Source: Candidatus Micrarchaeota archaeon (GTDB taxonomy: Archaea > Micrarchaeota > Micrarchaeia > Anstonellales > Bilamarchaeaceae). From it: a DNA stretch of 64,000 nucleotides. Both the position numbers and the translations under genes were made by a program. Below the pieces are notes generated by a model. The model worked only from the letters and a program-made list of their open reading frames with translations, did not search any database and was not told the DNA's origin. The stretch's first letter is position 1. Each line of letters begins with the position of its first letter. This document shows positions 6,849 through 47,690 of this stretch, piece after piece. Location: contig JBDRCX010000006.1 in the NCBI GenBank assembly GCA_043821365.1, forward strand, positions 40,840 through 104,839. Direction: 5' to 3'.

Positions 6849-7694
6849 TCATTGGCACATATGTGTTTGCTGATTACATTGTTCTCCTTGTACACAATCA
6901 GCTGCAGTATTACAGTAACCTGTTTTTGCATTGCAATAATGGCTACTATCGCAAACTTGCCAAGTGCCACAGTCATCGTTTGAATTACAACGATCAACAT
7001 CATGCACACAAATATGAGTTGTGCTGCTGCACAATTCCCATTCATTACACTCATTGTGCCCCATACAGTAACCTTGTCTTGCAACACATTTGTTAGTTGT
7101 CTTATCACAAACTGACCATGCTTGACAATTCTCAGTACTTATACAGAAACCAACTTTTGGAATGCATGTATGTGAAGCTGAGTCACATGTTTGCCATGTT
7201 TCACAATCACCATCAAGATCGCATTTACCATCTAGTAGCATACATCTCTTAGAGGAGATATCACATTGTTTCCATGCATCACAATCTCTTGTGTCCACAC
7301 AGTAACCTGGAGCTGGACCACATTCATGCTTTGCTGGATTACAATATTCGTATGGTTGATTGCATTGATTGTCAGCATCACAGTAACCTGGAGCAGGTCT
7401 GCATGTTTGTGCTGAATCGCAAACCTGCCAACTCTGACAATCACTTGTTTTTCTACATAATCCAGTCTTATAAACACAAAGATGAGTTGAATCCGAATCG
7501 CATGTTGTCAGATTATCTGAACAATCAGTTTCAACATAACAAAAACCAGAACGAAGACCGCAGGTCTGAGAGGTTACATTACAACCTTCCCACGCCTGAC
7601 ATTCAGAATCAGATGTACATGCTTTGGGAGCACTACTGTCGCATCCAGCTAATATAAAAACAATGGCTATAAGCCCGATTAAGATTACTCTCAT
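6849..7694 (-). CDS. Secreted Cys-rich tandem-repeat lipoprotein (eight repeats of about 33 aa: C-x2-(S/T)-D-C-x-(A/S)-W-x-x-C-D-x5-C-x4-G-x-C)
   Basis: Signal peptide plus lipobox (LIAIVFILAG-C). About 60 Cys residues in 281 aa in a regular spacing. The repeat resembles the myxococcal-type Cys-rich repeat; that family assignment is from memory. Confidence 0.55.
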   Translation of the reverse strand: MRVILIGLIAIVFILAGCDSSAPKACTSDSECQAWEGCNVTSQTCGLRSGFCYVETDCSDNLTTCDSDSTHLCVYKTGLCRKTSDCQSWQVCDSAQTCRPAPGYCDADNQCNQPYEYCNPAKHECGPAPGYCVDTRDCDAWKQCDISSKRCMLLDGKCDLDGDCETWQTCDSASHTCIPKVGFCISTENCQAWSVCDKTTNKCVARQGYCMGHNECNEWELCSSTTHICVHDVDRCNSNDDCGTWQVCDSSHYCNAKTGYCNTAADCVQGEQCNQQTHMCQ

Positions 7695-8452: not shown

Positions 8453-9505
8453 TTATTGTCTTTGTTCTGGGCCAACTACCACAGTGTGTGCAACACCTTT
8501 ACATTCTCCACTGTCTAAACGTACTAATTTGCTTGTTGCAAGGCTTAATACTTGTGATTCGTTACCTGGACTTGCACAGCCATCTCTTCCACATGATACG
8601 CCTCCATTTCTTACTACTGGCATACCAGAAGAATCAACATCAATAGTAACACTAACTGTAAAGTCTCTGTCTTCTGCTCCTACTGTGCCTCTTATGCGTT
8701 TTATGTGTGAAAGAACAGATTGCTTTACCCTTTGATAAATTGATGCATTAACATCATCAGTACATTCTGGGACTATTTTTACACGTGCTGCTGCCCTTAC
8801 TGGGCTGGGTTTTCTTCCACTACAATCATCCTTACATCTTGGGTCAATTCCTGGATCGCAAACTTCGTTAATTTTAACTGTTGCAAATTCATAGACAGTT
8901 GTTCCATCCTCACGAACAACTGGAACTTCTACACCAACAACTACGTTTCTTTGTAGTATACCATCACCACAGTGAGTGTCTGCAAGACAAACAACTGGCT
9001 TGGCATCTTCTGGTGTGAAAGTAGGCTCACCATCTTGTTTTGATCTAACTGGAGCATCCGCATTAGGTATTTCTAATGGACCTGCAACCCCATCACCACA
9101 ACGACCAGCATCTGCTGGATCATGTCTTGGTGATCTTGATTCGCCTTCACCTTTACTTAATTCTACTATTCCGTCTCCTTTAACTGGAGGAAGATCACAT
9201 GGAACACAATCAGTTCTTGGTGCTTCAACTTCCACCCATTCTATTTGAGTTACTTCTTGAACATTTCGCACAACTCTAGTAACTTGAACACACTCTTTTG
9301 GTTCTTCATGCATAGTTGCTGCGGCAACTGGTTTTGATGGTTCTGGAGGCAATATTGGTCCTTCAGTTTGTGGTCCGCCACTGCATGTTTTGAAAAGAAG
9401 CATAGCTGCAACTGCAGCTGTAGTTGTACCGATAGCAGCATAATTCTTCCATCCCATCTTTTTTGATTCTGGTGTTTTAGGACCAGATGTGCGAGTTGTT
9501 CTCAT
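8453..9505 (-). CDS. Secreted/membrane-anchored Cys-containing hypothetical protein (first gene of the island cluster when read from the 3' side)
   Basis: ATG at 9505; the track ORF starts at TTG 9517. There is an N-terminal TM (AAIGTTTAAVAAMLLF). The protein is rich in Pro, Gly, Asp and Cys. A TATA-like tataaaat lies about 20-26 nt upstream of the ATG, consistent with a leaderless mRNA. Confidence 0.45.
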   Translation of the reverse strand: MRTTRTSGPKTPESKKMGWKNYAAIGTTTAAVAAMLLFKTCSGGPQTEGPILPPEPSKPVAAATMHEEPKECVQVTRVVRNVQEVTQIEWVEVEAPRTDCVPCDLPPVKGDGIVELSKGEGESRSPRHDPADAGRCGDGVAGPLEIPNADAPVRSKQDGEPTFTPEDAKPVVCLADTHCGDGILQRNVVVGVEVPVVREDGTTVYEFATVKINEVCDPGIDPRCKDDCSGRKPSPVRAAARVKIVPECTDDVNASIYQRVKQSVLSHIKRIRGTVGAEDRDFTVSVTIDVDSSGMPVVRNGGVSCGRDGCASPGNESQVLSLATSKLVRLDSGECKGVAHTVVVGPEQRQ

Positions 9506-9523
9506 AAATTTCACCAAATAAAC

Positions 9524-9531
9524 ATTTTATA
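9524..9531 (-). promoter_or_regulatory. Putative TATA box (tataaaat on minus strand) for gene 8453..9505
   Basis: It is the AT-rich octamer at the expected distance upstream of the ATG. There is no SD sequence. Confidence 0.3.
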
Positions 9532-9613
9532 CCCCATAGGGTAGTTGTGTTATATTATATACTTTAGTGGTAAAGTATATTTAAACCTATCTTTTTTCTG
9601 GTTTGTTGAAAAA

Positions 9614-11134
9614 TCATGACTTTACCTCTAAAGATGCTGCTTCCTTATTGAGGTTGGTGTTTCTTGTTCCTCGGCTGAATAAAAGTAAACCTGCCTGTAC
9701 TGCTGCAAGGGCCACAAGTGCTGGTTGGTAGAAAGTACCCAAAAGATCACTGCCAGTTGATGTTAAAAACAACGCAGCATCTGCACCAAAACATACTGTA
9801 GCAGTTGCTATTTCGAATGTGTATGGTTTCAACCTCAAGTTAGACCACATTTCTGCAATGCCTCCTCGAGATATTGAATCAAGGATTTTTTGCTGAGTTT
9901 CCATTTTAACTGAAACCAACTTATTTCCTGATTTTCCATTGTGTGAATTTAGTGTTATTTCAACATCAGCTTTGACGCCTTTGATAGTAACTTGTTTTGA
10001 ATACTGTTCTGTAATAACTAATCTGAATAGATCTGGTTTAGCACCTTTTTGATGAAGAACAAACTCGTATTGACCATCTTTTGCACCTTTGTATTCAAGA
10101 TAGCACCCTGATGCTAGCCTTCTTTTTGATCCTGGAAGACCGAACGAATGTGGATAAGTTTTTTCACCCATTTTTGGTGGTTCTACTTTCTTTGGTTCGG
10201 GTTTTGGCTTAAGAGATTCTGCAATTGCTCTTACTATTCTTTTGTTATTTTTATTCATTACAGATGAAAAACCATTTTGAGTTCTTCCGTTACACACCAA
10301 CCAATCAATTACTTGTTTATCAGTGTGTTTGAAGTTTCTAGTTGTTGAAGCTTCAAGAACAACAGCTGAAAATCTTGGTAAATAATATCTGATATTGGTT
10401 TCTGATGATTCTGTTTCGCCTAATTTTTGTTTTAAAAGTTCAACTGCACTTTCAGCTCTTGCAGTACCGAATGTTTTAAGTTGTCTTAAATATTTATCAT
10501 TAAACTTGTGTGGTTTGTTAATATTGAAAAGATTAGAGTTATCTGCAAACAATCTACCGTCTTGATGGTAAAACCTAATTGATGTTTCTAAAGCAAGCCT
10601 AACAAGGTCTTCACTATATCCTGCTTTTTTTGCTGCTTCTGAAAATGCAACAATTGCAGCTTGGTATTTATCATTACTAAAATTGGCTCTTACAAAAACA
10701 CCTTCTACCCATGTTTGAATAGCAGAAACTTTTGGTATTGGTGGTTTTTCAACAAATGCTGGGTCTCTTTCTGATGGTGCAAAATCTAATACATCGCCCA
10801 ACTCAGAATATGCTGCTCTTGGTGGTTCTGCTGGCCCTGGTGCCACACCTGGTGCTTCCTCTCTGAATCTTGCTGGTGGCATTGAACCAAGATCAACTGA
10901 ATGATCACCTGGTGGACTAAAACCATCTGCATGAACATCAGTTCTGTCTGGTTCTCTGACTGGTGGTCTTGGTTCAGCTACTGGTGGTTTTCCACCGGTT
11001 GGAGCATCTTCAATCAAACTAGGTCTAAGTACTGGCCTTGGTAAAACTGTGGTGTCAAGAACTTTTCTTGCATCATCAAGTCTTCTTTTTGCTGCATCTC
11101 TTCCTGATGGTCCTACCTGTCCTCTTCCTGCCAT
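9614..11134 (-). CDS. Hypothetical protein, 506 aa, Pro/Ala/Arg-rich N-terminus and C-terminal hydrophobic helices
   Basis: ATG at 11134 overlaps the stop codon of the upstream gene (TAATG). The C-terminus VCFGADAALFLTSTGSDLLGTFYQPALVALAAVQAGLLLF predicts 2 TM helices. Confidence 0.45.
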   Translation of the reverse strand: MAGRGQVGPSGRDAAKRRLDDARKVLDTTVLPRPVLRPSLIEDAPTGGKPPVAEPRPPVREPDRTDVHADGFSPPGDHSVDLGSMPPARFREEAPGVAPGPAEPPRAAYSELGDVLDFAPSERDPAFVEKPPIPKVSAIQTWVEGVFVRANFSNDKYQAAIVAFSEAAKKAGYSEDLVRLALETSIRFYHQDGRLFADNSNLFNINKPHKFNDKYLRQLKTFGTARAESAVELLKQKLGETESSETNIRYYLPRFSAVVLEASTTRNFKHTDKQVIDWLVCNGRTQNGFSSVMNKNNKRIVRAIAESLKPKPEPKKVEPPKMGEKTYPHSFGLPGSKRRLASGCYLEYKGAKDGQYEFVLHQKGAKPDLFRLVITEQYSKQVTIKGVKADVEITLNSHNGKSGNKLVSVKMETQQKILDSISRGGIAEMWSNLRLKPYTFEIATATVCFGADAALFLTSTGSDLLGTFYQPALVALAAVQAGLLLFSRGTRNTNLNKEAASLEVKS

Positions 11135-12528
11135 TATGCACCACCTGAGTTAACTGAATCCCATTGGACAAGTACAAGCATTTCTGATGCTTTTGCCCTT
11201 ACGGTTTCAGCTATTTGAGTTACCTCTTCTTTGAGTTTTGCGTTCTCTGGTTTATCAAGATCAGTTAAAGAAACTCCTGCTTCTCTTGCAATAACTGCTT
11301 TAACTGAGCCTGGATCTTCAGTGAAAGATTCTAAAACTCCTTTCACTGTTTCAGCACCATATTGAGATGCAATTGTAGTCACTGTATTAGTGTCCTCTCT
11401 TGCTGGTCTTCTGCTTTTGTCAGCTGACAAAGCACCAATAAGCAAGTTTGAAACAATTTGTAATGTAAACTGTCTTACTCCATTTGCACTTTCTGCATTT
11501 GTACCAAGTGCTCTATCAAGATCTTGTTCAAGCTGTGCTACTCTGCCTGCTAAACCATGATCAGTTTTTTCTCCTTCTGCTGGCTCTGGTCCTTCAATTA
11601 CATCAAAGATACCATCAACTGTTTTTCTAAGTTCAGCCATGAAAGGATCGACTATTCCTCTTAATTCTCTCCTGATTGTTCTGGCAACTTCACCAGTGAC
11701 TTCTTCAACAGCTTCTGCTTTGAGTTGTTTTTTAAGATCTGGCAATACTCTGTCAAGAGCTGCTGCAACCATTGCTTCAAAATCAGGTTTTGCTTCTGGT
11801 TCTTGAACTACTGGAATTTGTCTTTCTGTATCTGGACCATCATCCATAGCTGGCATTTCTCTTTCTGGTTCTCGTTCTAAAAATGCTGGTCTTTCAACTG
11901 TATCTCTTGGACCAGCTGGTCTGTCTGCTAATGCATCTAAACCATCTGGAATTCCTGTAGCGTCTGGTTCTGGAACTTCAAATGGTGTACCTAGATCTCC
12001 AAAAGGATCAGAATCTAGATCAAAATCAGATGGTGGTGGTCTAGGAAGATCAGAAAATGCATCACGAACTTCGTCGCTTGGCCCTAGATCTGAATAACCG
12101 TCTCCTGAATCAACAGATACAAGAGCACCCACATCTAAATCATCAAATGAACGTCCTCTATCTTCTGGTTCTATTTCTGCAAGAACTTCAACTACTTCAT
12201 CCGTTCCTTGACCATCTTGGTGATCTCTTGTTACTAAACTAGCTAAATCATCTTCTGGTGCGAGACCTGGACCATGTAATGTTGGTTCTTGATCAACTGA
12301 ATCACCTTCAAGTGCTGGTGTTTCTTCTTGAACATCTGCAGCTTCACTTGGTAATTTTGCATCACGTTCAACTACTGGTGCTTTTGGTTCAGCTGCTGGA
12401 CCTTCTGTTAATCCAGCTCCAAGAACACCTGGTTTTAGTGGATCTGCAACTTTTTCAGGTGGTTTAGCTGCTCTTAATTTTGCTGCTTCCAATCTATCTT
12501 TCAAAGCTTGTCTTGGATCTGTCATCAT
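11134..12528 (-). CDS. Acidic, Pro/Asp/Glu-rich, probably intrinsically disordered protein (about 464 aa)
   Basis: Long ORF. ATG at 12528 (the track has GTG at 12534), 2 nt after the stop of the upstream gene. The composition is extreme (DLDSDPFGDLGTPFEVPEPD...). The antisense strand carries mirror Leu/Gln-rich ORFs, which are artefacts. Confidence 0.45.
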   Translation of the reverse strand: MMTDPRQALKDRLEAAKLRAAKPPEKVADPLKPGVLGAGLTEGPAAEPKAPVVERDAKLPSEAADVQEETPALEGDSVDQEPTLHGPGLAPEDDLASLVTRDHQDGQGTDEVVEVLAEIEPEDRGRSFDDLDVGALVSVDSGDGYSDLGPSDEVRDAFSDLPRPPPSDFDLDSDPFGDLGTPFEVPEPDATGIPDGLDALADRPAGPRDTVERPAFLEREPEREMPAMDDGPDTERQIPVVQEPEAKPDFEAMVAAALDRVLPDLKKQLKAEAVEEVTGEVARTIRRELRGIVDPFMAELRKTVDGIFDVIEGPEPAEGEKTDHGLAGRVAQLEQDLDRALGTNAESANGVRQFTLQIVSNLLIGALSADKSRRPAREDTNTVTTIASQYGAETVKGVLESFTEDPGSVKAVIAREAGVSLTDLDKPENAKLKEEVTQIAETVRAKASEMLVLVQWDSVNSGGA

Positions 12529-12530
12529 AA

Positions 12531-13979
12531 TCACCTTTTAATATCTTCAACTGGTTCTGTGGTCTTTGCCACTCCTTCATAACTTGGCTTTAGCATTAAT
12601 TCTGCTTGAGTCATTTCAGTCTCACTCAAATCTCTTCCAGCAGTTAGCATGTCAAATAATGCAGCAAGTTTTTGATCAACTACTTCAAATGCAGCTTTTA
12701 CTGCACCTTCAACTCCACTTAATTGTTCTTGAACTCCTGCAACAGCTTCTTGTGCTTGTACAAGCAAACCATTTGCTTGTTCAACAAGACCTTCTGCCCT
12801 GTCTGCTGCTTTTCTTGCTTCACTTGCTTCTCTTACAGCAGAACCTGCACTTCTTTTTGCAGTTCCAACTTCTGCTACAAGGTAGGCACTGAGTTCAGCT
12901 CCTGATAATGTTCTTTCTTCTCCATCGATTGTTACTCTGCATGTGAATACATCATCAACTGCTTTTCTTGTTTGTTCTGGTAATTCGAATTTTACTTTTT
13001 CTAAAGCATCAAACATATAGCCTAAAAGTTCAACACCCTTCTTTCTAACAGTTTTCAATTCACCAGAACCATTATCTGGAACTTGAACAGTTGCACTGAA
13101 TAGTTCATCCAATGAAACAGAAACAACACCTTTCATTACCATAGGATCTTGTAAATTATCAACTTGTGCACATAGATATGCCAAAGCCTCTAATCCTTTC
13201 AATTGTTTAACTTCAGGTGTACCAAAATCAACTGAATGATCAACTGATTCGCCCATACCTTCAACAAGAACTTCTGTTCTGTCTGCTGGTTTTGATTGAA
13301 CTGGACGATTAATTGTAATTGATTCTATTCCACTAACCATTTCTCCCAAAACTTCCATACCAACAACTTTATGTTCGCCACGCATTATTTCCAAACTTCC
13401 AATAGAACGAACAAGTTGTGCAACTGCTTCTGGTCCTTTTAGTTCTTCAGTACCAACAGCAATAGATACTTCAGCTATTGCAGCAACAACAGAACTTATT
13501 TGTTCCAATGCTTCTGGTCCTTTTAGTTCTTTCTCACCAACAGTAATTGTAATTGAATCTACCATTCCTTTCAAATCAGCTGCATCGCTTTGTGCTTTTT
13601 GTGCAGCGTCTGCAGCTTCAAGTGCTGAAGTTGCAGCTACTTCTGAATTTCCTCGAATCTCAACAGCAGCTTCAGATTGTTCTCCGATAAATCCTTCGAG
13701 CATATGACCTTGTTCTTCAACAAGTGTAGTAGCCTGAGTAAGTTTTCCTTTAGCTTCTTCAGCTGCTTCTTTAGCTCCCCGAGCATCTGCTCTAAGACCA
13801 TCCAATTGAGCATCAACATTTCCTTTAACAGCATCCAGTCCTTCGACAAGCGCTGCACCTACTGAACCAGTTTCACTACCAAGAACTTTACGAATATTTC
13901 TTTTTGCAACGTCTAAATCTGGTTGCCTAACTTCCTTTTTATCTGGAACCCCCGTACCTCTCTTCGTCAAACATATCAC
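12531..13979 (-). CDS. Ala/Glu-rich coiled-coil protein with internal repeats (482 aa)
   Basis: Internal repeat ...ELKGPEALEQISSVVAAIAEVSIAVGTEELKGPEAVAQLV.... There is no ATG near the 5' end, so a GTG start at 13979 is likely. It is the second gene of the coupled operon. Confidence 0.45.
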   Translation of the reverse strand: MICLTKRGTGVPDKKEVRQPDLDVAKRNIRKVLGSETGSVGAALVEGLDAVKGNVDAQLDGLRADARGAKEAAEEAKGKLTQATTLVEEQGHMLEGFIGEQSEAAVEIRGNSEVAATSALEAADAAQKAQSDAADLKGMVDSITITVGEKELKGPEALEQISSVVAAIAEVSIAVGTEELKGPEAVAQLVRSIGSLEIMRGEHKVVGMEVLGEMVSGIESITINRPVQSKPADRTEVLVEGMGESVDHSVDFGTPEVKQLKGLEALAYLCAQVDNLQDPMVMKGVVSVSLDELFSATVQVPDNGSGELKTVRKKGVELLGYMFDALEKVKFELPEQTRKAVDDVFTCRVTIDGEERTLSGAELSAYLVAEVGTAKRSAGSAVREASEARKAADRAEGLVEQANGLLVQAQEAVAGVQEQLSGVEGAVKAAFEVVDQKLAALFDMLTAGRDLSETEMTQAELMLKPSYEGVAKTTEPVEDIKR

Positions 13980-14126
13980 CTCATAGCGAAATATCTAAAT
14001 GTGTGTTATGGTATATTTTAGTGGGGACCAATATTTAAATGTTTGTATTTGTTCAATTGTGGTGGTACTAAGACATTCTTCATGCCCCCAAACCATACAA
14101 TACATTTCTAACAAAAACTAATAATA

Positions 14127-16319
14127 TCAAACTCGACGGAACATTAACGTCTTGTCATCATCATTTTTACTTTCTCTTTCTTTACATGAACACATGGTTG
14201 GGAATTTTGTTATTCTTTCCCCATCTGGACCATCATTATTATCTGCTCTTCTTTCTTCTGCCATTGATATTAGAGCATCTCTTGCCATAGTCAAATCCCC
14301 AGAATAAAGATCTATTACATCAACAATTTCATGATTGCAAATCGGTACTCCGATTCCATCACTATGCACAGCAATGATGTCACCTTTTTGTAGAACAAAT
14401 GGTTGGTGATGATAAAGTCTACCATTTATATGAATATGAGCAGCACCATGACCTAATGCTGAACCGATTATATGATCTGGATAATTAAGTTCAACTTGTT
14501 TTTTTAGAACTGCTTCGTAAAATTCTTTTGTTTGTGTTTCATCAAGATCTCTTACTCGAAGTCCTCTTTCTTCAAATTCATTAGAGACCAATCCAAAAGC
14601 ACCAACATAGTTAAAAGAGTGGCCAGCACTTTCAGCTACTATTTTACCACCACGAATTATTTTCCAATCACTATCCCCACAGTGAATTCCATAAAACTCA
14701 TTTTCTTTTTGATAGGATATTGTTACTGTGGTCCCCATATTGTTTATTTGTCTTCTATCTAGTGTTTGTTTTGATGCTATCTGGTCCATAACCACTGCCA
14801 AGTCCATTGCAACAATAGTAGCACGCACATCTTCTGGAGTTGATATCCAGCCCGCAGCAGATGCAATCTCAAAAACTTCTTTTGCAATTTCACTTGCTCT
14901 GCTGCCACCGCCATGTCCACCCATACCATCAAAAACTGCATCAAGATAGACTAGTTTACCATCAGGAAGAGTTACTCTGGCTGATGAGAAATTATCCTCA
15001 CACTCTTTTGGAGTACCATCACGACATCTTTTTGCTTTCATACTTGTGTTTTTGTAAGTTATTGAACCATAAACCTGGTGATTGAAGCCAAGAAACGAAG
15101 AGAAAACACTAAATTCTGCCTGTCTTAGTGCAGCTTGCCTAAGTGCACTCAGTTGCATTGTTTCTCCAAAAGCAGCAATATCAAGCAGTAGTTGTTGATG
15201 ATAATTTTGTTGATAAACTGGATGTAAAAAAGCACGTTCTAAATTTCCCACTACTTCCGAAGGGATTCTTCTTGCATTAGAATAACTTGGAACCAACCTT
15301 GTTGATAAACCATGTTGTTCTCTTTCATATTTACCCTCAAGTTGTGGTGTTTGCGTCAGCAAATCAACCAAACCAGTTTCTTCTCTTGTGAACCTAGGGG
15401 CATCTTCAAATCGAATTTTGTGAGCTAATGAAGCAAGAGTCCTAAGGTCTAAAACATTTCTACTATGAAATTGGAATCGCTCTGCAATTGGTGTGTTGAA
15501 CCAAAGATCGTGTGTTGAATTGTATTTGAACACAGTATTCTTATGTGCCATTGTTGCAGCATTTGTATCAACCAATAGACCTTTGCCTTTTTTTGCTTGT
15601 ATAAGTATTTGTACTCCTTCAACCCTTTCCATCCATCGTATAACTGCAATTGTTCTTTCATTTAATTTTCCTTTTCCAGATATTGCATCTGCAACAGATT
15701 GAAAATCAGAAGCAGAAGGATATGCCTTGCTCCAAAAATCAGAAAGTGCAGCATTATTTCCATCTAACCATGCATGAAATAATTCAAGTTTTAGTGCAGT
15801 TTCTGGTAAACAAACATCAGTAAGATTCTTGAATCTCGGTGCATTTGGTCCAAGTGATTCCATTGGCATTAAATAAAATGAATCAAGTTGAAAAGAATCT
15901 TCCATTGCCAGTGCTTCCAATCTTTTAGTTGGAGTTCCTGGAATAAGATCGCATTTGTCATAAATAGAACGAACAGCCAGACGAACTTCCTGTACTCTGT
16001 GCTGACCATCTTGTTTTTCCCACATTCCTGCAACTAAAAGCTGCATTCTCAAATCCCTAATTCCAGGATGCATTGCAAGGAACTCATTGAATCTTGATTG
16101 ATCTAATTCACCAACTGATATTCTCAAAGCTAATGAAATCGCATCTCTTTCTCTCACATTTAATTCATTGAAAAGCATTTCTTCTCTTGAAGTTATTTTT
16201 GATCTTAGTTCAAGTGTTGGTAGACCCATCCTATCAGCTAAACCTTTGGTAATATCTTTAGGAATAGCTCTGGTATGTAGCTGACGTGAAAGTAAAGTTT
16301 GTGGGTTAATCTCGGCCAT
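14127..16319 (-). CDS. Large multidomain protein with a C-terminal PP2C-type Ser/Thr phosphatase domain (730 aa)
   Basis: ATG at 16319. The PP2C signature VFDGMGGHGGGSRASEIA lies at about residue 460. Later HSDGI and further Asp-rich metal-binding motifs follow. The N-terminal roughly 450 aa have no recognisable domain. Confidence 0.55.
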   Translation of the reverse strand: MAEINPQTLLSRQLHTRAIPKDITKGLADRMGLPTLELRSKITSREEMLFNELNVRERDAISLALRISVGELDQSRFNEFLAMHPGIRDLRMQLLVAGMWEKQDGQHRVQEVRLAVRSIYDKCDLIPGTPTKRLEALAMEDSFQLDSFYLMPMESLGPNAPRFKNLTDVCLPETALKLELFHAWLDGNNAALSDFWSKAYPSASDFQSVADAISGKGKLNERTIAVIRWMERVEGVQILIQAKKGKGLLVDTNAATMAHKNTVFKYNSTHDLWFNTPIAERFQFHSRNVLDLRTLASLAHKIRFEDAPRFTREETGLVDLLTQTPQLEGKYEREQHGLSTRLVPSYSNARRIPSEVVGNLERAFLHPVYQQNYHQQLLLDIAAFGETMQLSALRQAALRQAEFSVFSSFLGFNHQVYGSITYKNTSMKAKRCRDGTPKECEDNFSSARVTLPDGKLVYLDAVFDGMGGHGGGSRASEIAKEVFEIASAAGWISTPEDVRATIVAMDLAVVMDQIASKQTLDRRQINNMGTTVTISYQKENEFYGIHCGDSDWKIIRGGKIVAESAGHSFNYVGAFGLVSNEFEERGLRVRDLDETQTKEFYEAVLKKQVELNYPDHIIGSALGHGAAHIHINGRLYHHQPFVLQKGDIIAVHSDGIGVPICNHEIVDVIDLYSGDLTMARDALISMAEERRADNNDGPDGERITKFPTMCSCKERESKNDDDKTLMFRRV

Positions 16320-16392
16320 TTTATCCCTTGTTTCTATGTATGTATTTTTGTGGGTATGTATTTTTAAATAAACCTTTTATGAAAATGGAAAA

Positions 16393-17097
16393 TTATGTTA
16401 ATGAGATTTGAAATAGAGTTCCAACAAAATAGCCAGTTAAAGCAGCTGCACCACCAATAAGCATCAACTCAATCCCACCATGAAGCCATTTGCCCGAGGT
16501 TAAATGACTTTTATATGCACCAAAAACAAATAGAAAAACAATGCTTATTATCAAACTTAGTATAATTGAAAAATTCACTGAAAAGAAAAAGAATGGGGCA
16601 ATAGGTATCAAAGATCCGATAATTGCACTGACTCCGACAATCAAACTTTGTTTCAAAGGAGACATACTTTCCCTTGGATCTTCAAGTTTTAGCTCATCCC
16701 GCATCATTGTTTTAAGCCAGACTTTTCTATTTGAAACAATTTTGTCAACAACTTGATTCAATAGTTTCCCTGAGAAACCTTTTTCTTTATATATCTCAGC
16801 TATTTCTTCACGTTCTTTATCTGGAAGATTTTCCATTTCCCAGATTTCTCTTGCTATTTCTGCTTCATAATGTTCAACTTCTGCACGTGCAGATGTATAT
16901 GCAACTGCCGCCATGCTTACACTCTCTGCAAATGTTGCAGCAAGACCAGCAAGAAGAACAAGCTGAGTTGATTGAGTTGCAACCGCCACACCCAAAAGAA
17001 TACCAAGAACATTGACAAGACCATCCTGGCCACCTAGAATAAGATTTCTGAAAAGTTCTCCTCGACCAGTTCGATGTTGCTCAATATGTTCTAACAT
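16393..17097 (-). CDS. VIT1/CCC1-family iron/manganese transporter
   Basis: N-terminal GGQDGLVNVLGILLGVA, a central acidic loop (EIAEIYKEKGFS...) and three C-terminal TM helices. 234 aa. ATG at 17097. Confidence 0.65.
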   Translation of the reverse strand: MLEHIEQHRTGRGELFRNLILGGQDGLVNVLGILLGVAVATQSTQLVLLAGLAATFAESVSMAAVAYTSARAEVEHYEAEIAREIWEMENLPDKEREEIAEIYKEKGFSGKLLNQVVDKIVSNRKVWLKTMMRDELKLEDPRESMSPLKQSLIVGVSAIIGSLIPIAPFFFFSVNFSIILSLIISIVFLFVFGAYKSHLTSGKWLHGGIELMLIGGAAALTGYFVGTLFQISLT

Positions 17098-17192
17098 ACA
17101 AAATCAATATAGTATATTACGATTAAAAAGATATCAAATTTTTCAGAATGAAAAATTCATCAACAAAAAATGGACTTGTTGTGAACTTCCAA

Positions 17193-17239
17193 CTGAACGA
17201 CGAATCGTTCAGTGGACCATAGAACGAATACTTCGTTCT
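17193..17239 (-). terminator. Two consecutive perfect hairpins (ctgaacga-cgaa-tcgttcag; gaacgaa-tac-ttcgttc) just downstream of the tRNA 3' end
   Basis: Palindromes seen directly at 17193-17212 and 17223-17239. They lie between the tRNA 3' end (17309) and the VIT gene start. Confidence 0.25.
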
Positions 17240-17308
17240 GTAGGTCGTTCACTTCTCGTCCAAATTTCTTGAGTATAGCTAATAGAAGAACAAAAATAAA
17301 ATGAAATT

Positions 17309-17568
17309 TGGACTTGAGGGGACTCGCACCCCTGGCCTCTCCGATTTTCTATTTACCATGAAATTGATAATTGCATGGCCGCATTGAACAGAGTCCAATA
17401 GCGTAGATATGCGAACGGAGCGCTCTGCTTCCCGCTTTTAGGAAAAGCGGGACCAAACCCCGCAGTTCATAAAAGATAATGCTCCAACCTTTTTCCTAAA
17501 AAGGTTGGACCAAAAACTAATTTTTGATCCAAACTTTTTTTCAAAAAGTTTGGCTGAGCTACAAGCCC
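17309..17568 (-). tRNA. tRNA-Ala (anticodon CGC) gene interrupted by about 190 nt of intron: about 121 nt in the D-loop region and about 65 nt in the anticodon loop (canonical 37/38)
   Basis: On the minus strand the 5' exon is GGGCTTG-TA-GCTC-AG. The 3' part is AGAGCG-CTCCG-TTCGCA[intron]T-CGGAG-AGGCC-AGGGG-TGCGAGT-CCCCT-CAAGTCC-A. The acceptor stem pairs perfectly and includes G3:U70, the alanine identity pair, and the discriminator is A73. The anticodon stem is CTCCG/CGGAG with loop TT-CGC-AT. The T-stem is AGGGG/CCCCT. No CCA is encoded. Hand-derived coordinates may be off by 1 nt. Confidence 0.55.
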
Positions 17569-17611: not shown

Positions 17612-19234
17612 TCAATACATTGGTTGGGTTGCTTCACCATAATCTTTTGCCCACCTGTCAGCCATATTGGACAAATGCCTCTCAACTCTATCCCAAACTA
17701 ATTGATATTGTTCTTGTAAATAATCACTACAACCATATTCTACTGAACCAAACTTAAATTCAGACATTTTATTGATCATAAATTTTGCATATCTAAGAAG
17801 AGTACTAACTTCTCTCTCAGTAAGATCATACTCTTGCTTTAGTCTTCGTCTTTCATTATCTGGAATTTCTGTTTGTCCATTTGGTAGAGTCAATAGACTA
17901 TCAATAGCAAAATCAAGAGCATGCTGGAGTTGACTATACCTTCTATCAAATAATAGAGAATCAGCACTAACTATTCTCATAGGAAGGTGTTCTTCCAGAG
18001 GCAGTTCATGACCATTTGAACAAATGCCCTGTAGAAATCGATTTACATCTGAATATCTTTCTGTTCTCATAAGACGATAAATCCTATAAAGTCCTGCATT
18101 TAATTCAAATAATGGACTTGATGGATCATCATGCAAACCAAGAATTCTTTGCCTACGAGCACCGTATTGTAAATCAAACATGATAGTATCATTTGAACGA
18201 GCTTCTCTGGCTCCTTGTATTTGGCGCTTTTCTGCTGCAGAAACTGCATAATTTGAATAGTCCAATAATGGTGTAAGCAACCATGACTGTTCACTGTCTA
18301 ATAGACCTGCTTTAAGTGGTGCTCCAACCTCATTAATTCCAGCAGGATTTTTTGGTTGTAAATATTTCAAAAATAAACCATCATCAGTAATTGCAATGCA
18401 AAGATAGTACCTTGCATTAGAAACAACAAGATTAAGGTGGTAACCATAGGCCCCTTCTTTTGAATTGCCAGACCACCAAAAGGACACTAGACGATCTATA
18501 CCATCACCAGGCTCTGCAAATGTTAAGCTGCTTATTCCTTCTCTCATAGAATCCTGAATATCTTCTTCTGTCCTGAGGATAAGAGTATGCGCAACTGCCT
18601 GTCCGTCTTTGGTTTTTGCAACTGCATTTATACCAAAAGTTTCCAATTTTGTGTAGCCTCCTTTCAGAGTATAAACAATTGGAGCATCATGGTAAACTCT
18701 ATCAATAATATTTTGGATATCAAAATGGAAATTCTGTAAATGCTCCCCATCTCTTTGTGAACCTTTCCAAAAAATATTATGATATATAGAAAATCCAGCA
18801 AACCTACGCCAGCATTCTTGCGATTTTGAACGATAGGCAAAAACTAATCTTGTTTCATTATTCTGATGGACGTAAACTGGAACTGCTTCATACCCAACAT
18901 TAATTGGACTGCCAACACCAACCCACCCATCCTGAATTTTAACCATTTCACGTATTTTGAATGGCTCTTTGTTTCTTCTTATTATAGCTTCTATATGTCT
19001 TGCATGACGGTCAATTAAATTTGCTGCAATTGAACGTTTATCAGATTGAACACGCCACAATGAAGCATCACGATCAAATAAAGAGAATTTTGGAATGTCA
19101 CCAACACGAAAAGGTTTTGCATCAACTTGCCTTCTGATCGGATCCGAATATGGTAACCCCAGCTTATCAGCAAGAGAACGTGCTAATGCTGAGGGATTAA
19201 GATCTCTAGATTTATAGTTTAATCTGACTACCAT
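17612..19234 (-). CDS. Hypothetical protein (about 540 aa), Arg-rich, no recognisable domain
   Basis: Long clean ORF. ATG at 19234 (the track has TTG at 19240). Its composition resembles the 8.4-16.3 kb island proteins. Confidence 0.45.
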   Translation of the reverse strand: MVVRLNYKSRDLNPSALARSLADKLGLPYSDPIRRQVDAKPFRVGDIPKFSLFDRDASLWRVQSDKRSIAANLIDRHARHIEAIIRRNKEPFKIREMVKIQDGWVGVGSPINVGYEAVPVYVHQNNETRLVFAYRSKSQECWRRFAGFSIYHNIFWKGSQRDGEHLQNFHFDIQNIIDRVYHDAPIVYTLKGGYTKLETFGINAVAKTKDGQAVAHTLILRTEEDIQDSMREGISSLTFAEPGDGIDRLVSFWWSGNSKEGAYGYHLNLVVSNARYYLCIAITDDGLFLKYLQPKNPAGINEVGAPLKAGLLDSEQSWLLTPLLDYSNYAVSAAEKRQIQGAREARSNDTIMFDLQYGARRQRILGLHDDPSSPLFELNAGLYRIYRLMRTERYSDVNRFLQGICSNGHELPLEEHLPMRIVSADSLLFDRRYSQLQHALDFAIDSLLTLPNGQTEIPDNERRRLKQEYDLTEREVSTLLRYAKFMINKMSEFKFGSVEYGCSDYLQEQYQLVWDRVERHLSNMADRWAKDYGEATQPMY

Positions 19235-22224: not shown

Positions 22225-24648
22225 ATGTGCAACTTATACCTAGAGGGTACAAGGGCAATAGTGGACTTAGCAAAATGTCCATATGAATTTGCCTCACCAG
22301 AGTTTCTTAATCTTCATCTAAAGGACCTCTCAACAACTGAATCACCAATAAAAACATTAAGGTATGAAGAGGAAATAGTTGTAGAACTTAATGAAGAAAA
22401 AACTGCAATCCTAACTCAATATGCTTCATTTATACGCCAATTGGAAACAATACTTTTGAAAGATGATATTTATGGATTACGACAGGATCCAGCATGTGAC
22501 AATAGGCGCAAATTATTGAAAAGATTTTATGAATATGTGTTCCTCAACCCACAGATGGCTTCTCAACAACTCAGAGATTATAATGAACCTGAACCTGAAA
22601 AAGCTATTTTTGTCAAAGGATATCAAACATTCAAGGGATGGATCGCAGGTATTTTGAAAAGTTATGAAGTGACAAAACTCTATAATTTAGTTAAGAATAC
22701 CGGAGATCTACGTGCAGCATTTCTTGAACTCGTTGGACTTAAGACTCTTTACTTTGTCCCTTCTTTGGTTTTAGGAATACCAAAAGATGCAGTTCCAATG
22801 AAAGGTCCTGAAGCAAAATATAGCCTTTCTTTTGGTGTTGATGTACAGATATATGAGATTCCGGGTGAAGAAGCATACTTATATGTCCAAGAAAACAAAG
22901 CCATAGATGGACTAAGTCCTGAACTCAATAAACTGTTGAAAACAACCATAAATGAACAATTCAAGGAAACGTTCTCAAATGTAGATTGGGACATATTAAT
23001 GAATTTAAAAACAAGAGATTATCGTCAATACTTCATAGATAGAGCAGTTATGGAAGGGATACCGATTACTCCACAACAGGCAATGGCCATGGGACACGAA
23101 TGTGCTGCATGGGTTGTTGGTCTTGGTGCCCATATTGAGAACCTATCTCTGGATAAAGAAAATATAACTGATATTTATATTGACAGCGAAAACTCTCCTT
23201 TGTACGTAGAACATGCAAAATATGGCCTGTGCCACACATTATACAGGTATAATAGAGATTTGCTAGATAGATGTTTCAGAAATATAGTCTATACACTTAA
23301 GGGCACTAGAAAATTTGATGAAAGCAACCCGATTGTTGATGTTGTACTAAAAAGACTTTCAATGAGATGCCACTTACAAAGACCTCCAGCTACATTCGGT
23401 GAATTGCAAGCTGCTTTGAGAATTATGAAAGAACAGCCATTTACATATGCACAATATTTAAACTTTAATTCATTTACCCCGTTTTTTGCAGGCTATGACG
23501 ATACAATGGTAACCTTAGGTTGTTCTGAAGCAGTTCTTGGATTAAAAGGTGTTGGAAAAACATCATTCACTGCAGCAAAAATTACCTCTATTGGAACTAG
23601 AAGAAGAATCATACCAGTTCAGGATATTGAAGAAATTCCAGTACGTGCATTTAGAAAACGTGGATTCCATATTGGTGCTGCGAGGGTTCAGAGTTCAGAT
23701 GTCGAAGAATCCCACACAAAAGAATTAGACCTTGTTGCAATGGCCAATGCTCTTCTGCGTATGGGTGATGCTGCACTTATTATTAACGAAGTTAGATCAC
23801 GTGTTGCAGTGCAGGGTATTATCAACTTACTTAATACCCAGCCAGGTGTTTTCCTTTTATACAATCTACACGCAGAATCACTTCGAGACATTCAAGATAG
23901 ATTGGAACTGGTATTTGGACTTCCAGCTGCCAGCATGTATGCCACTGATAGATATACCTTCTTGAAAAAAGTAAGATTTGGAAGAAAAGGAAGGATATAT
24001 CGTGTGGTTGGTTTTGAATTTGAAAGTGACATTGAAGAGAAAAAATTCGTGGAGATATTTAGGTTTAGAAGAGGGGAAAACATAAATAGCTGTACTTGGG
24101 AAGCAAAATTCCTTAGAAACCCTGAAGCAAGTATGTGGAATTTTGATAAAGTAGATATAAAGAAGTTGATGAAGGAAATTGACATTTCTTTTGTACCCCC
24201 AGCACTTGGAAGAAGAAGTGAAGAAAGTGGAATTTCACCAGAACAGTATATGCTTCAGGCATTCTGGAAAGGAAAAATGTACTATGATATATACAAACTT
24301 AGTAAACAGATGAATGATAAACTAATGCTTGAACTTGATTTTGTCCTCAAAGTGAATACTGCGGCAGGTAGACTACTTGTTTCAATGGAACAGGAACAGG
24401 GTGAAATTGATTTTGGAGAAGCATGGGATAGATGGGGACCAATCTTCAAAGATGTTGTAAAGAAAGACCTTGAAAAACGAAAATTAGGTGTGCCTGAAAT
24501 ACCAGATGAGCCAGAACTACCACAACCAGAAGATGATATCGATGATGGTGATGAACCACCAGAAGATGAAGAAATGGTTGAAGATCCAAGAATGAAAACT
24601 TTGAGAGAACGATTAAGACAAAAGAAATTGGAAACAAAGAAAAAATAG
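22225..24648 (+). CDS. Divergent secretion-superfamily (GspE/VirB11/FlaI-like) ATPase with a roughly 420-aa N-terminal extension and an acidic C-terminal tail
   Basis: Walker A GLKGVGKTS. Walker B / Asp box DAALIINEVRS matches the (D)RIIVGEVR motif. A His-box-like LYNLHAES matches the STLHANSA motif. 807 aa. The C-terminus is PDEPELPQPEDDIDDGDEPPEDEE. A TATA-like tatttaaaa lies about 30 nt upstream. The ATG in the printed sequence is about 1 nt off the track start. Confidence 0.45.
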   Translation: MCNLYLEGTRAIVDLAKCPYEFASPEFLNLHLKDLSTTESPIKTLRYEEEIVVELNEEKTAILTQYASFIRQLETILLKDDIYGLRQDPACDNRRKLLKRFYEYVFLNPQMASQQLRDYNEPEPEKAIFVKGYQTFKGWIAGILKSYEVTKLYNLVKNTGDLRAAFLELVGLKTLYFVPSLVLGIPKDAVPMKGPEAKYSLSFGVDVQIYEIPGEEAYLYVQENKAIDGLSPELNKLLKTTINEQFKETFSNVDWDILMNLKTRDYRQYFIDRAVMEGIPITPQQAMAMGHECAAWVVGLGAHIENLSLDKENITDIYIDSENSPLYVEHAKYGLCHTLYRYNRDLLDRCFRNIVYTLKGTRKFDESNPIVDVVLKRLSMRCHLQRPPATFGELQAALRIMKEQPFTYAQYLNFNSFTPFFAGYDDTMVTLGCSEAVLGLKGVGKTSFTAAKITSIGTRRRIIPVQDIEEIPVRAFRKRGFHIGAARVQSSDVEESHTKELDLVAMANALLRMGDAALIINEVRSRVAVQGIINLLNTQPGVFLLYNLHAESLRDIQDRLELVFGLPAASMYATDRYTFLKKVRFGRKGRIYRVVGFEFESDIEEKKFVEIFRFRRGENINSCTWEAKFLRNPEASMWNFDKVDIKKLMKEIDISFVPPALGRRSEESGISPEQYMLQAFWKGKMYYDIYKLSKQMNDKLMLELDFVLKVNTAAGRLLVSMEQEQGEIDFGEAWDRWGPIFKDVVKKDLEKRKLGVPEIPDEPELPQPEDDIDDGDEPPEDEEMVEDPRMKTLRERLRQKKLETKKK

Positions 24649-35690: not shown

Positions 35691-35739
35691 TGACAAATGT
35701 CAGTTCATCCTTATATCAGATAAATTTTCAGTAGATTGC

Positions 35740-38101: not shown

Positions 38102-38236
38102 AGTACTATGGTGACATATGTCACCAACATTATTTAAATATGCCCAGAGCGTAATAGTTTCAGGAAGTTTGAAAAGGGAAAATCAAACAAATTAGGTGGG
38201 GAGGATTATGATTACACATATTAGATTTAGCGTAAG

Positions 38237-38260
38237 CCAACTACGACCCCCAGGGGGGAA
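38237..38260. promoter_or_regulatory. Conserved GC-rich motif (copy 2) ccaactacgacccccaggggggaa in the TrmB/paralog divergent intergenic region
   Basis: See the motif at 34062-34086. The shared core is CAACTACGACCCC.CAGGGG.AA. Confidence 0.4.
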
Positions 38261-43828: not shown

Positions 43829-43829
43829 G

Positions 43830-47689: not shown

Positions 47690-47690
47690 A

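Follow-up and report, generated by a model that had tools for sequence, protein, structure and literature searches.

A conserved PP2C phosphatase gene neighbourhood with four divergent partner genes in Micrarchaeota

The window analysed is a 64-kb stretch of DNA from a Candidatus Micrarchaeota archaeon whose genome has ~36% GC. All six minus-strand open reading frames noted in the initial annotation are present (6/6), namely a PP2C phosphatase gene followed by p2, p3, p4 and p5, and p0 on the far side of a tRNA-Ala gene. The features of the locus are as follows.

8453..9505, minus strand: p5, with a basic N-terminus, a hydrophobic segment, a Cys-rich ectodomain and a C-terminal beta-rich domain
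9578..9585, minus strand: TATA-box-like TTTAAATA, 80 nt upstream of the p5 start
9614..11134, minus strand: p4, with an amphipathic N-terminal motif, a Pro-rich disordered region, a beta-rich domain and a C-terminal hydrophobic hairpin
11134..12528, minus strand: p3, with an amphipathic basic N-terminal motif, a disordered region and a helical C-terminal domain
12531..13979, minus strand: p2, acidic Ala-rich coiled-coil protein (from sequence and repeats)
14032..14039, minus strand: TATA-box-like TTTAAATA, 69 nt upstream of the p2 start
14127..16319, minus strand: PP2C-family Ser/Thr phosphatase, 730 aa (open reading frame and Pfam PP2C_2)
14130..15005, minus strand: PP2C catalytic domain, residues ~439–730, with all metal-binding motifs
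14991..16196, minus strand: all-alpha N-terminal domain of the PP2C protein, residues ~42–443 (local HMM and AlphaFold2)
16361..16368, minus strand: TATA-box-like TTTAAAAA, 49 nt upstream of the PP2C start
16393..17097, minus strand: VIT1-family transporter (Pfam VIT1, E 4e-64)
~17311..17568, minus strand: tRNA-Ala(CGC), with the G3:U70 pair and two large inserts
17612..19234, minus strand: p0, a 540-aa globular protein with an N-terminal motif common with the PP2C protein

The five genes from PP2C to p5 had been described as one translationally coupled operon. Coupling holds for p2, p3 and p4, which abut each other: the p2 stop codon (TGA, 12531–12533) is separated from the p3 ATG at 12528 by 2 nt, with GGTGA just upstream, and at 11134 the stop codon of p3 and the start codon of p4 overlap in TAATG. 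By contrast, spacers of 147–156 nt between PP2C and p2 and of 108 nt between p4 and p5 each begin with a T-run (T5 directly after the p4 stop) and contain the consensus archaeal TATA box TTTAAATA, and a single five-gene operon is therefore unlikely. The p2 gene more likely starts with TTG at 13970, located 10 nt downstream of a GGTGA Shine-Dalgarno-like motif, than with GTG at 13979. PP2C and p5 each seem to be served by a separate TATA box, and the locus probably comprises three transcription units, PP2C, p2-p3-p4 and p5. These units probably have separate promoters, so any co-regulation is putative.

Pfam PP2C_2 matches residues 439–599 above its cutoff (33.1 bits, cutoff 24; E 5e-8), with the motif VFDGMGGHGGGS at residues 462–473. 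The protein is 100% identical to an NCBI entry from a metagenome-assembled genome, 'PP2C family serine/threonine-protein phosphatase [Candidatus Micrarchaeota archaeon]'. Six catalytic motifs are conserved in the family (ED at 441–442, DGMGGH at 464–469, MGTT at 528–531, GDS at 548–550, SDG at 653–655 and DDDKT at 720–724) and align to bacterial PP2C structures, the best PDB sequence matches being PppA, PstP and Stp1. A hydropathy window detected no hydrophobic or transmembrane segment, and no signal peptide was found. The protein is predicted to be a soluble, motif-complete PPM-type phosphatase. Its gene is a single-copy syntenic ortholog, and the longest members of its family reach 2111 aa.

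The catalytic domain is fused to an all-helical N-terminal domain of ~400 aa that is confined to this PP2C family. A local HMM of this domain matches most of the top 150 representatives, nearly always directly upstream of the PP2C part; at E<1e-30 there are 78 cluster representatives, and the two domains are combined in most matches. The AlphaFold2 model built from 40 sequences is almost wholly helical (pLDDT 86.4, pTM 0.79). Foldseek returned no credible structural counterpart for it in the PDB (best E 0.39, TM 0.15) or in a viral structure set (best E 0.11).

The phosphatases closest to this protein are PstP of M. tuberculosis, Stp1/PhpP of streptococci and PppA of the P. aeruginosa type VI secretion system, to which the PP2C domain aligns with all metal-binding motifs kept, although similarity to Stp1 is low (58.9 bits against a cutoff of 230 for the NCBIfam Stp1 model). 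The present system differs from those PPM systems in that its N-terminal domain is unmatched, phospho-binding domains such as FHA were not detected, the window lacks a kinase gene and the neighbouring proteins have no homologues there. The phosphatases RsbU, RsbP and SpoIIE of Bacillus are PP2C enzymes under the control of N-terminal regulatory domains. In the Micrarchaeota protein, too, the C-terminal PP2C domain is preceded by a large non-catalytic module fused directly to it, but this N-terminal module matches no solved structure in sequence or fold, its regulatory role is putative, and STAS or anti-sigma proteins for partner switching were not seen.

In p2, the ELKGPEA repeat reported by the initial annotation is present as two exact copies, and a third unit, QLKGLEA, fits the pattern. 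By eye, three further looser G-x-E units can be discerned, giving six in all. The centre of the protein is an array of strand-turn-helix (beta-alpha) units of ~27–35 aa; according to the ortholog alignment, distant relatives have two related units, and several more are found in the window, L002 and L004. A PDB profile search yielded no match other than coiled coils of the tropomyosin and Lpp types, at E >= 1e-3. The two terminal thirds of p2 weakly match alanine-rich coiled coils (Pfam Alanine_zipper at E 0.026, PDB tropomyosin at E 1e-3); these scores do not reach family thresholds and mirror nothing beyond composition and heptad pattern, and the central array has no counterpart in tropomyosin or the Lpp alanine zipper. 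Single-sequence AlphaFold2 gave long terminal helices at low confidence (pLDDT 49).

The proposed disorder of p3 was borne out for residues 1–250, which the charge-hydropathy boundary places on the disordered side, as it does residues 1–130 of p4. The ~250-aa middle of p3 is acidic, Pro/Ala-rich and disordered, and is followed by a conserved helical C-terminal domain of ~215 aa that ends in GG[DE/A] and is the only part alignable with orthologs. The protein has a net charge of -51 and no Cys, and found no Pfam, NCBIfam, PHROG, PADLOC or credible PDB match. Ser and Thr make up 8% of the disordered regions, which are not especially rich in them. Only the first 90 aa and the last 180 aa of p4 are alignable with orthologs; its beta-rich domain is conserved, and an insert of ~190 aa is specific to the window. 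The C-terminal hydrophobic segments claimed for p4 are present and are predicted to form a transmembrane hairpin serving as a membrane anchor. It should be noted that transmembrane segments and topology were assigned with a simple hydropathy window rather than a dedicated predictor.

As had been noted, p5 is Cys-rich (14 Cys). A short basic N-terminus and one hydrophobic segment precede a conserved Cys, the ectodomain carries the motifs CGxCGDG and HCG[DN]G, and the C-terminal beta-rich domain is conserved. The protein is predicted to be anchored through the hydrophobic segment, which scores under the transmembrane threshold in the window copy and over it in most orthologs. Relatives carry p5 paralogs with 21–30 Cys further downstream. 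In L006 and L008, the N-terminal motif and disordered region of the p4 type, together with a transmembrane segment, are fused ahead of a p5-type ectodomain, which links the two families.

The gene order SecD/SecF, variable gene, intron-bearing tRNA-Ala, VIT1, PP2C, p2, p3, p4, p5 and HAD hydrolase was found in at least 12 Micrarchaeota loci with 41–63% GC (conserved order is seen in L002, L004–L006, L008–L019 and one contig known by its gene list alone). The same housekeeping genes bracket the block in every relative examined, and VIT1 lies immediately upstream of the PP2C gene in all loci reaching that far except L018. Compared with Candidatus Bilamarchaeum, the flagged genes are 36–49% identical, whereas the flanking genes are 72–89% identical. 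All named family members are from Micrarchaeota without exception. The neighbourhood is inherited vertically and has to date been found only in Micrarchaeota, which are tiny symbiotic archaea; it proved to be conserved core genome within this lineage, but the partner proteins p2–p5 lack homologues of known function. Beside the locus lie SecDF and a CpaF/FlaI-like secretion ATPase that is highly conserved.

The block genes are indeed compositional outliers in the window: Ala, Pro, Asp, Glu, Arg and Gly together make up 42–55% of the proteins of the four downstream genes versus 23–40% for other window genes. GC1 of the atypical genes is 0.52–0.67, and third positions are A/T-rich as reported, with GC3 of 0.11–0.19 versus ~0.25 in the flanks and versus 0.22–0.24 expected from host codon usage and amino-acid content (z -2.6 to -6). 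In the window, the block genes draw on the host-preferred codons and do so more strongly. The amino-acid bias is alike in all five genomes examined, in each of which GC3 falls below that of most compared flanking genes, and the Ala/Pro/Gly/Asp/Glu-rich make-up is a family trait in all of the at least 12 loci. Across genomes of 36–63% GC, the first two codon positions remain GC-rich and the third very AT-rich. Since syntenic orthologs in genomes of 41–63% GC share the bias, the composition is a property of the proteins and not of a recent transfer from a high-GC donor, in agreement with the initial annotation. It would follow from the structural classes represented, i.e., coiled coil, disorder and Cys-rich ectodomain.

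We tentatively propose, at a probability of about 45%, that this inherited neighbourhood of three units encodes a membrane scaffold under Ser/Thr phosphorylation. Proteins p2–p5 would form a scaffold at or across the cytoplasmic membrane, with the Cys-rich domain of p5 facing the cell exterior and the disordered cytoplasmic arms serving as phosphorylation substrates. Phosphates would be added by receptor-type Hanks kinases, comprising a kinase domain, a transmembrane segment and a PEGA domain, and removed by PP2C, whose N-terminal domain may act as a regulatory or docking module. Kinases of this make-up adjoin SecDF in six of the more distant relatives (L005, L006, L008, L011, L017 and L018), a few genes away from the phosphatase, matching the Hanks-kinase/PPM gene pairing of the bacterial systems; neither the 64-kb window nor the 22 kb examined in L002 contains a kinase gene. 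The anatomy of the locus, with its intact PP2C, nearby receptor-type kinases in more distant relatives, transmembrane-hairpin protein and Cys-rich ectodomain protein, fits the earlier suggestion of a signalling or envelope-associated module. The one feature that would tie p2–p5 to phosphorylation is their conserved adjacency to the PP2C gene. Possible biological roles include envelope or shape maintenance, division and host contact.

The same adjacency could also arise among syntenic neighbours without a functional link, PP2C being a general cytoplasmic phosphatase and p2–p5 an independent envelope or structural set. The separate TATA boxes and T-runs at the PP2C/p2 and p4/p5 spacers are compatible with this, gene order may be very stable in such small genomes, and the wider surroundings are likewise conserved yet functionally mixed (aminotransferase, SecDF, VIT1, HAD hydrolase and AP endonuclease). 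However, wherever a locus includes sequence downstream of PP2C, the next gene is p2-like, between 36% and 63% GC and at protein identities as low as ~30%. Variable features are the kinases, the p5-type gene number and the gene that separates SecF from the tRNA. Accelerated divergence and low GC3 are common to all five block genes. We consider the absence of a functional link unlikely.

A more specific proposal, which we regard as decidedly unlikely, is a membrane tether for cell division or shape, in which p3 and p4 anchor FtsZ or a cytoskeleton, p2 is DivIVA- or tropomyosin-like, in keeping with its tropomyosin-like coiled-coil composition, and kinase and PP2C regulate the cell cycle in the manner of StkP/PhpP (with MapZ and DivIVA) or of PknA/B (with PstP). 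Among the nearest solved PP2C structures are PstP and Stp1, components of modules for division or wall growth. ZipA and MapZ of bacteria are tethers composed of a membrane-binding element, a long disordered linker and a binding domain. The fast-evolving p3 likewise consists of an N-terminal amphipathic helix, a long linker that is disordered and, at the C-terminus, a domain, the same layout as described for the haloarchaeal FtsZ1 anchor CdpC, and p3 and p4 resemble CdpC-type tethers in architecture, p3 also in its fast evolution with conserved layout (bioRxiv 10.64898/2026.07.16.738847). Nevertheless, p3 lacks Cys and zinc ribbons and is therefore not a CdpC homologue; both proteins are non-homologous to such tethers and have no known FtsZ link, and membrane binding by their N-terminal motif is putative. 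No FtsZ, SepF or Cdv gene was found among the ~35 of 51 window genes scanned with Pfam or in related loci, and a Cys-rich ectodomain with expanding paralogs suits a surface role better.

Still less likely is an apparatus for host contact or effector delivery by an episymbiont, with p4 and p5 spanning the envelope and 'ARSLAxKxGLP'-tagged proteins as cargo or effectors. Cultivated Micrarchaeota are attached to Thermoplasmatales hosts. A short N-terminal tag does recur in otherwise unrelated enzymes of the locus, including PP2C (ITKGLADRMGLP), the giant PP2C proteins, p0 (ALARSLADKLGLP) and a transglutaminase-core protein, but the hhalign probability of this shared motif is very low. The great length of some PP2C family members, the fast-evolving and expanding p5-type surface proteins and the secretion ATPase and SecDF beside the locus would suit such an apparatus, whereas PP2C is single-copy, syntenic and cytoplasmic in its features, and the adjacent receptor kinases, whose kinase domains are cytoplasmic, point to a substrate cycle inside the cell.

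Finally, the suggestion of an integrated element, or of recent high-GC DNA inserted at tRNA-Ala, is effectively refuted: the adjacent tRNA gene, the atypical amino-acid composition and the slightly raised GC of the block (0.38–0.40 vs 0.35) would fit it, but orthologs lie between the same housekeeping genes in at least 12 loci, codon choice tracks host preference, named family members all belong to Micrarchaeota, no integrase, phage-like or defence match was found save one PHROG of unassigned function on the PP2C domain, and the tRNA-Ala, likewise retained next to the block in 11 related loci, does not mark an insertion boundary.

The tRNA-Ala gene is present as annotated, even though both ARAGORN and Rfam miss its unspliced form; the inserts lie in the D-loop and in the anticodon loop, after the anticodon, and ARAGORN finds the tRNA only after in-silico splicing. 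Beyond it, p0, without a Pfam or PDB match, had been assigned the same composition as the block, a resemblance that is only mild (Gly, Ala, Arg and Pro 25.6% vs 18–24% in five housekeeping genes; GC3 0.21). Its orthologs are found in L002, L005 and L015, and in other relatives its position is occupied by a PP2C paralog or a transglutaminase-core protein.

The six minus-strand ORFs of the initial annotation, a PP2C-domain gene with its four downstream partners (p2-p5, in order of transcription) and the hypothetical gene p0 beyond a tRNA-Ala gene, are all present in the window:

17612-19240/19234, minus strand: p0, ORF
14127-16319, minus strand: PP2C, 730-aa ORF
12531-13979, minus strand: p2, ORF
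11134-12534/12528, minus strand: p3, ORF
9614-11134, minus strand: p4, ORF
8453-9517/9505, minus strand: p5, ORF

The proposal that the five genes from PP2C to p5 form one translationally coupled operon holds for its central part. The p3 stop and p4 start codons overlap in a TAATG (junction sequence GCATAATGGCA), and at the p2/p3 junction, AGGTGATTATGATG, a GGTGA Shine-Dalgarno-like motif is followed by the TGA stop, two bases and an ATG. In contrast, the two longer spacers, of 147-156 nt between PP2C and p2 and of 108 nt between p4 and p5, both show a T-run of at least 5 at their start and, on a motif reading, TTTAAATA inside. Either TTTAAATA or TTTAAAAA occurs in each of the spacers upstream of PP2C, p2 and p5, at 49-80 nt from the start codon, and GGTGA is found 10 nt ahead of the p2 and p5 starts. 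A single polycistronic five-gene operon is judged unlikely from the T-runs and promoter-like motifs in these spacers. Together, the TATA-like motifs, T-runs and GGTGA elements point to three likely transcription units, namely PP2C, the translationally coupled p2-p3-p4 and p5. The start of p2 is probably the TTG at 13970, since the conserved pseudo-N-termini in orthologs ("VICL", "VIMM" and similar) resemble a translated Shine-Dalgarno sequence (GGTGAT).

A protein in NCBI, encoded on a 798-kb contig of a MAG labelled "Candidatus Micrarchaeota archaeon", matches the window PP2C protein at 100% identity; the nearest named relative of PP2C, from Ca. Bilamarchaeum dharawalense, shows 46% identity. 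An exhaustive HMMER search with this pair of PP2C proteins returned 78 cluster representatives at E<1e-30, among which all named members belong to Micrarchaeota or Micrarchaeia. Word-indexed homolog searches with PP2C and p5, one of them with an 11-sequence profile, returned the query and one relative each, and a GTDB genome scan with overly specific patterns matched Ca. Bilamarchaeum only. Further loci were collected from the contigs of PP2C-family proteins and by a metagenome scan with the family signature GWIxxPED[VA]R, the latter alone yielding 9 loci. In addition to the Ca. Bilamarchaeum locus (L002, 41% GC), 12 more loci with 42-63% GC were obtained (L004-L006, L008-L019), and one extra contig is known from its gene list alone.

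Clustering of the ORFs from related loci revealed a common map. It is headed in some loci by one or two Hanks kinases and runs on through secD and secF, a variable gene, tRNA-Ala, the transporter gene VIT1, PP2C, p2, p3, p4, p5 and a HAD hydrolase. Some loci encode after p5 an extra protein of the "motif, disordered region, transmembrane" type and more Cys-rich p5 paralogs. In L002, the order is aminotransferase, an ~816-aa protein, SecD, SecF, p0, VIT1 and PP2C, followed by a proline-dehydrogenase insert and then p2, p3, p4, p5, the HAD hydrolase, a Cys-rich protein and AP endonuclease. In the most divergent locus, L019, the p5 match is weak and the genes in the p2 and p3 positions escape the profiles used. 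Between the window and L002, flanking orthologs share 72-89% identity, whereas the flagged genes share only 36-49%, with p3 and p4 aligning to their orthologs only in part; the rate of evolution of the block is about double that of the neighbouring genes. The suggestion that it is an integrated element, such as a tRNA-targeted island, was rejected because at least 12 related loci have the block in this position with the tRNA as a conserved neighbour, and no integrase or defence-system genes were matched in Pfam, PHROGs and PADLOC scans. The sole phage-family match was to a PHROG without a known function and fell in the PP2C domain, and paralogs of p2-p5 were not found elsewhere in the window. 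The block is vertically inherited and has so far been seen only in Micrarchaeota, being one of few multi-gene "hypothetical" blocks that keep their position between genomes of widely differing GC content.

The composition of the encoded proteins was measured across 51 window ORFs. Ala, Pro, Asp, Glu, Arg and Gly together make up 42-55% of p2-p5 vs 23-40% of the products of other window genes, while PP2C and p0 are milder outliers. The p2-p5 genes combine a GC1 of 0.52-0.67 with a GC3 of 0.11-0.19, compared with ~0.25 in the flanks and 0.22-0.24 expected from host codon usage and amino acid content (z -2.6 to -6), and they favour the host's preferred codons (GCA, AGA, CCA, GTT, GAA) more strongly. 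Across five genomes with 36-63% GC, p2-p5 contain 28-41% Gly+Ala+Arg+Pro and 12-24% Phe+Tyr+Met+Ile+Asn+Lys, and the GC3 of p2-p4 is below that of all SecD, SecF, VIT1 and HAD genes of the same genome, that of p5 being below most. For example, GC3 on the p2-p5 side of L006 is 0.56-0.69 vs 0.76-0.83 in flanking genes. This recurrence of the same bias in five genomes of 36-63% GC agrees with the original view that the composition reflects selection on the proteins, not recent transfer from a high-GC donor. The pairing of "high-GC-like" proteins with extremely AT-rich third positions can therefore be a stable family trait and not a sign of gene transfer. In the window, the low GC3 of the block is explained neither by amino acid content nor by the first base of the next codon, and GC1+2 and GC3 are negatively correlated over all 51 genes (r = -0.67). 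A candidate cause is that genes which evolve fast are under weaker selection for codons ending in G or C; avoidance of over-GC-rich mRNA is an alternative candidate.

In NCBI, the PP2C gene already bears this annotation and its partners are "hypothetical". The phosphatase assignment was confirmed by Pfam PP2C_2 on residues 439-599 (33.1 bits, cutoff 24, E 5e-8) and by the presence of all the signature acidic motifs: ED 441-442, DGMGGH 464-469, MGTT, GDS 548-550, SDG 653-655 and DDDKT 720-724. The closest PDB sequence matches of the domain are PppA, PstP and Stp1 (E 1e-4 to 1e-3), and the first three signature blocks (ED, DGMGGH and GDS) align to the PppA and PstP structures. Since these motifs are intact and both the ortholog and 40 family members conserve them, the protein is likely an active enzyme. 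It does not belong to the Stp1/IreP equivalog family (NCBIfam NF033484), scoring 58.9 bits against a cutoff of 230 and matching profile positions 22-131 of 232. The region upstream of the phosphatase domain (N-domain, residues ~42-443) matches most of the listed family representatives, nearly always with the PP2C domain directly after it, in proteins of up to 2111 aa. An AlphaFold2 model built from a 40-sequence alignment is almost entirely helical (pLDDT 86.4, pTM 0.79). Foldseek searches with this model returned no match in PDB (best E 0.39, TM <= 0.15) or BFVD (best E 0.11), so that this ~400-residue domain is a confident prediction without a match among solved or viral structures.

Among the partners, p2-p5 have no Pfam, NCBIfam, PHROG, PADLOC or credible PDB match, either as window copies or as orthologs. 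Family scans of the six proteins and 28 ortholog or neighbour proteins returned only PP2C, kinase, PEGA and one Transglut_core domain, and PDB profile searches with p2, p3, p4, p5 and p0 gave coiled-coil or compositional noise or nothing. The alternative considered in the initial annotation, a conserved core block with homologues of known function, is thus borne out for conservation, within Micrarchaeota, and not for the partners, which are without a homologue of known function. The ends of p2 are Ala-rich coiled coils with compositional matches only, to tropomyosin and Lpp, and its centre consists of strand-turn-helix units (ITITVGEKELKGPEALEQISSVVAAI), two related ones in distant relatives and several more in the window, L002 and L004. 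A single-sequence structure model of p2 (pLDDT 49) was too poor for structure search. At its N-terminus, p3 carries a short basic, amphipathic motif with the consensus MG[S/K]LxDxLKK, which reads QALKDRLEAAKL in the window. Next come ~250 acidic Pro/Ala-rich residues, predicted from charge and hydropathy to be disordered, and a conserved helical C-terminal domain terminating in GG[DE/A]. In p4, an N-terminal motif of the same kind precedes a Pro-rich disordered arm; a beta-rich domain, which is conserved, comes next, and a hydrophobic hairpin lies at the C-terminus. The window copy of p4 also contains, at residues ~130-320, a ~190-aa Lys/Asn-rich insert of host-like composition, probably folded, which is absent in L002 and L004. 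In p5, a short basic N-terminus (GWKN) leads into a single hydrophobic segment with a conserved Cys after it; the Cys-rich ectodomain carries CGxCGDG and HCG[DN]G motifs, and its C-terminal domain is beta-rich and conserved. The p5 alignment shows CGDG and CGNG motifs, with "CGNG...GEQCD" in p5 paralogs, which may resemble those of Myxococcus-type cysteine-rich repeat proteins (repeated CGNG...E.CD units); no Pfam or NCBIfam model matched p5 at E 0.1 or better. In L006 and L008, the gene in the p4 position fuses an N-terminal motif, a disordered region and a transmembrane segment to a p5-type ectodomain, which links the p4 and p5 families. Overall, p2-p5 comprise a coiled coil, disordered arms, hydrophobic anchor segments and a Cys-rich domain, their membrane placement being predicted from hydropathy.

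A second motif, (I/L)ARSLAxK(W/L)G(L/M)P, was found at the N-terminus of PP2C, its paralogs, p0 and a Transglut_core protein, and is treated only as a lead because the hhalign probability of the match is very low. Comparison of p0 with the PP2C protein excluded it as a paralog of the latter, and profile comparison excluded a degenerate PP2C or transglutaminase-like protein. The slot between SecF and tRNA-Ala is variable and holds p0, a 570-aa PP2C paralog or a Transglut_core protein (Pfam E 1.6e-5), as in L008 (3419-5191), L019 (3743-5950), L005 (6795-8507) and L017 (7015-8727); several of these proteins carry the short N-terminal motif of the main PP2C protein.

One or two Hanks-type kinases adjoin SecDF in L005, L006, L008, L011, L017 and L018. 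Those fully read (L005, L006, L017 and L018) each combine a cytoplasmic kinase domain with a linker and a single transmembrane segment; Pfam confirmed a C-terminal PEGA domain in the L005 kinase only. No kinase gene is present in the window or in the available sequence of L002. An FHA domain was absent from all window and ortholog proteins scanned against Pfam, which excludes among them an FHA-kinase-PP2C module of the FhaA/FhaB-PstP-PknA/B type.

The block is tied to Ser/Thr signalling enzymes, and we rate the locus, judging from sequence, as a putative kinase/PP2C signalling module with lineage-specific partners and a regulatory domain. Of the two options first proposed, a signalling/envelope module is the one retained, its putative function being read from gene neighbourhood. 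Our preferred reading, to which we give somewhat less than even odds (about 45%), is that p2-p5 would assemble into a scaffold associated with the membrane, Ser/Thr phosphorylation would control the disordered cytoplasmic arms of this scaffold, and the N-domain of PP2C would serve as a regulatory or docking module. We found no paper describing this locus. Micrarchaeota are ultrasmall DPANN archaea, whose cultivated members depend on a host, and to our knowledge their envelope building, division and host attachment are largely unknown. With its five to seven proteins and its pair of short motifs, the locus offers a testable entry point for experiments in co-cultures of cultivated Micrarchaeota.

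A possible alternative role, by architectural analogy, is division or shape tethering as by CdpC, a haloarchaeal FtsZ1 anchor defined by two zinc-ribbon domains either side of a disordered linker (bioRxiv 10.64898/2026.07.16.738847). However, neither zinc ribbons nor a link to FtsZ are known here, and p3 was excluded as a CdpC-like FtsZ1 membrane anchor, for which two zinc-ribbon domains are required, by its complete lack of cysteine. Host contact or effector delivery is another possible role. It would be consistent with the N-terminal tag that several proteins share, with the giant size of some family members, with the expansion of Cys-rich surface paralogs and with a CpaF/FlaI-like ATPase nearby. 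It is also possible that the genes are merely syntenic and have no functional link. A further proposal, which we consider improbable, is a previously undescribed, envelope-spanning and Micrarchaeota-specific apparatus for contact with, or protein delivery into, a Thermoplasmatales host. Here p4 and p5 would lie at the membrane and surface, p2 and p3 would form a cytoplasmic scaffold, the ARSLAxKxGLP tag of PP2C, the giant PP2C proteins, p0 and the Transglut_core protein would act as a recognition signal, and the adjacent receptor kinases would be the switch.

Several other features of the window were noted. The tRNA-Ala(CGC) gene (17311-17568, minus strand) has a G3:U70 pair and is interrupted twice, by ~110 nt within the D-loop and by ~85 nt behind position 37 of the anticodon loop; it was missed by ARAGORN and Rfam, and ARAGORN calls it only after in-silico splicing. 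An interrupted tRNA-Ala of 110-335 nt lies beside VIT1 in 11 related loci (listed for L002, L005, L006, L008-L011, L013, L015 and L016), and ARAGORN found none in the seven scanned. Between tRNA-Ala and the VIT1 start lies a structured RNA candidate of ~95 nt (17170-17262, minus strand; MFE -40.5 kcal/mol, z -4.7; no Rfam match). It is closed by the stem UGGAC/GUCCA, has GUGAAC/GUUCAC as its inner stem and two hairpins that share the stem GAACGA/UCGUUC, and runs into U6; the L002 spacer is too short to hold it.

The gene at 22225-24648 (plus strand) encodes an 807-aa protein that contains the Walker A sequence GVGKTS, ends in an acidic tail, has no Pfam match and is similar to the CpaF, GspE and FlaI secretion ATPases in PDB (E 1e-9); it is unusually conserved, with 85-89% identity between genomes of 36%, 41% and 57% GC. 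A second "dark" block (34122-51609) comprises ten scanned genes without a Pfam match and two similar neighbours. It includes five tandem ~260-aa genes (43830-47698) and six ~525-aa genes, whose likeness, in size only, suggests paralog sets, and which enclose a HerA/FtsK/TrwB-like ATPase (40126-42270). Finally, the gene at 6849-7694 (minus strand) encodes a Cys-rich 281-aa protein with a canonical lipobox (ILAGC), repeated C-x-C motifs and a weak, below-threshold match to DUF5885; it is 75% identical in L002, and in several relatives the HAD hydrolase is closely followed by a gene of about this length.
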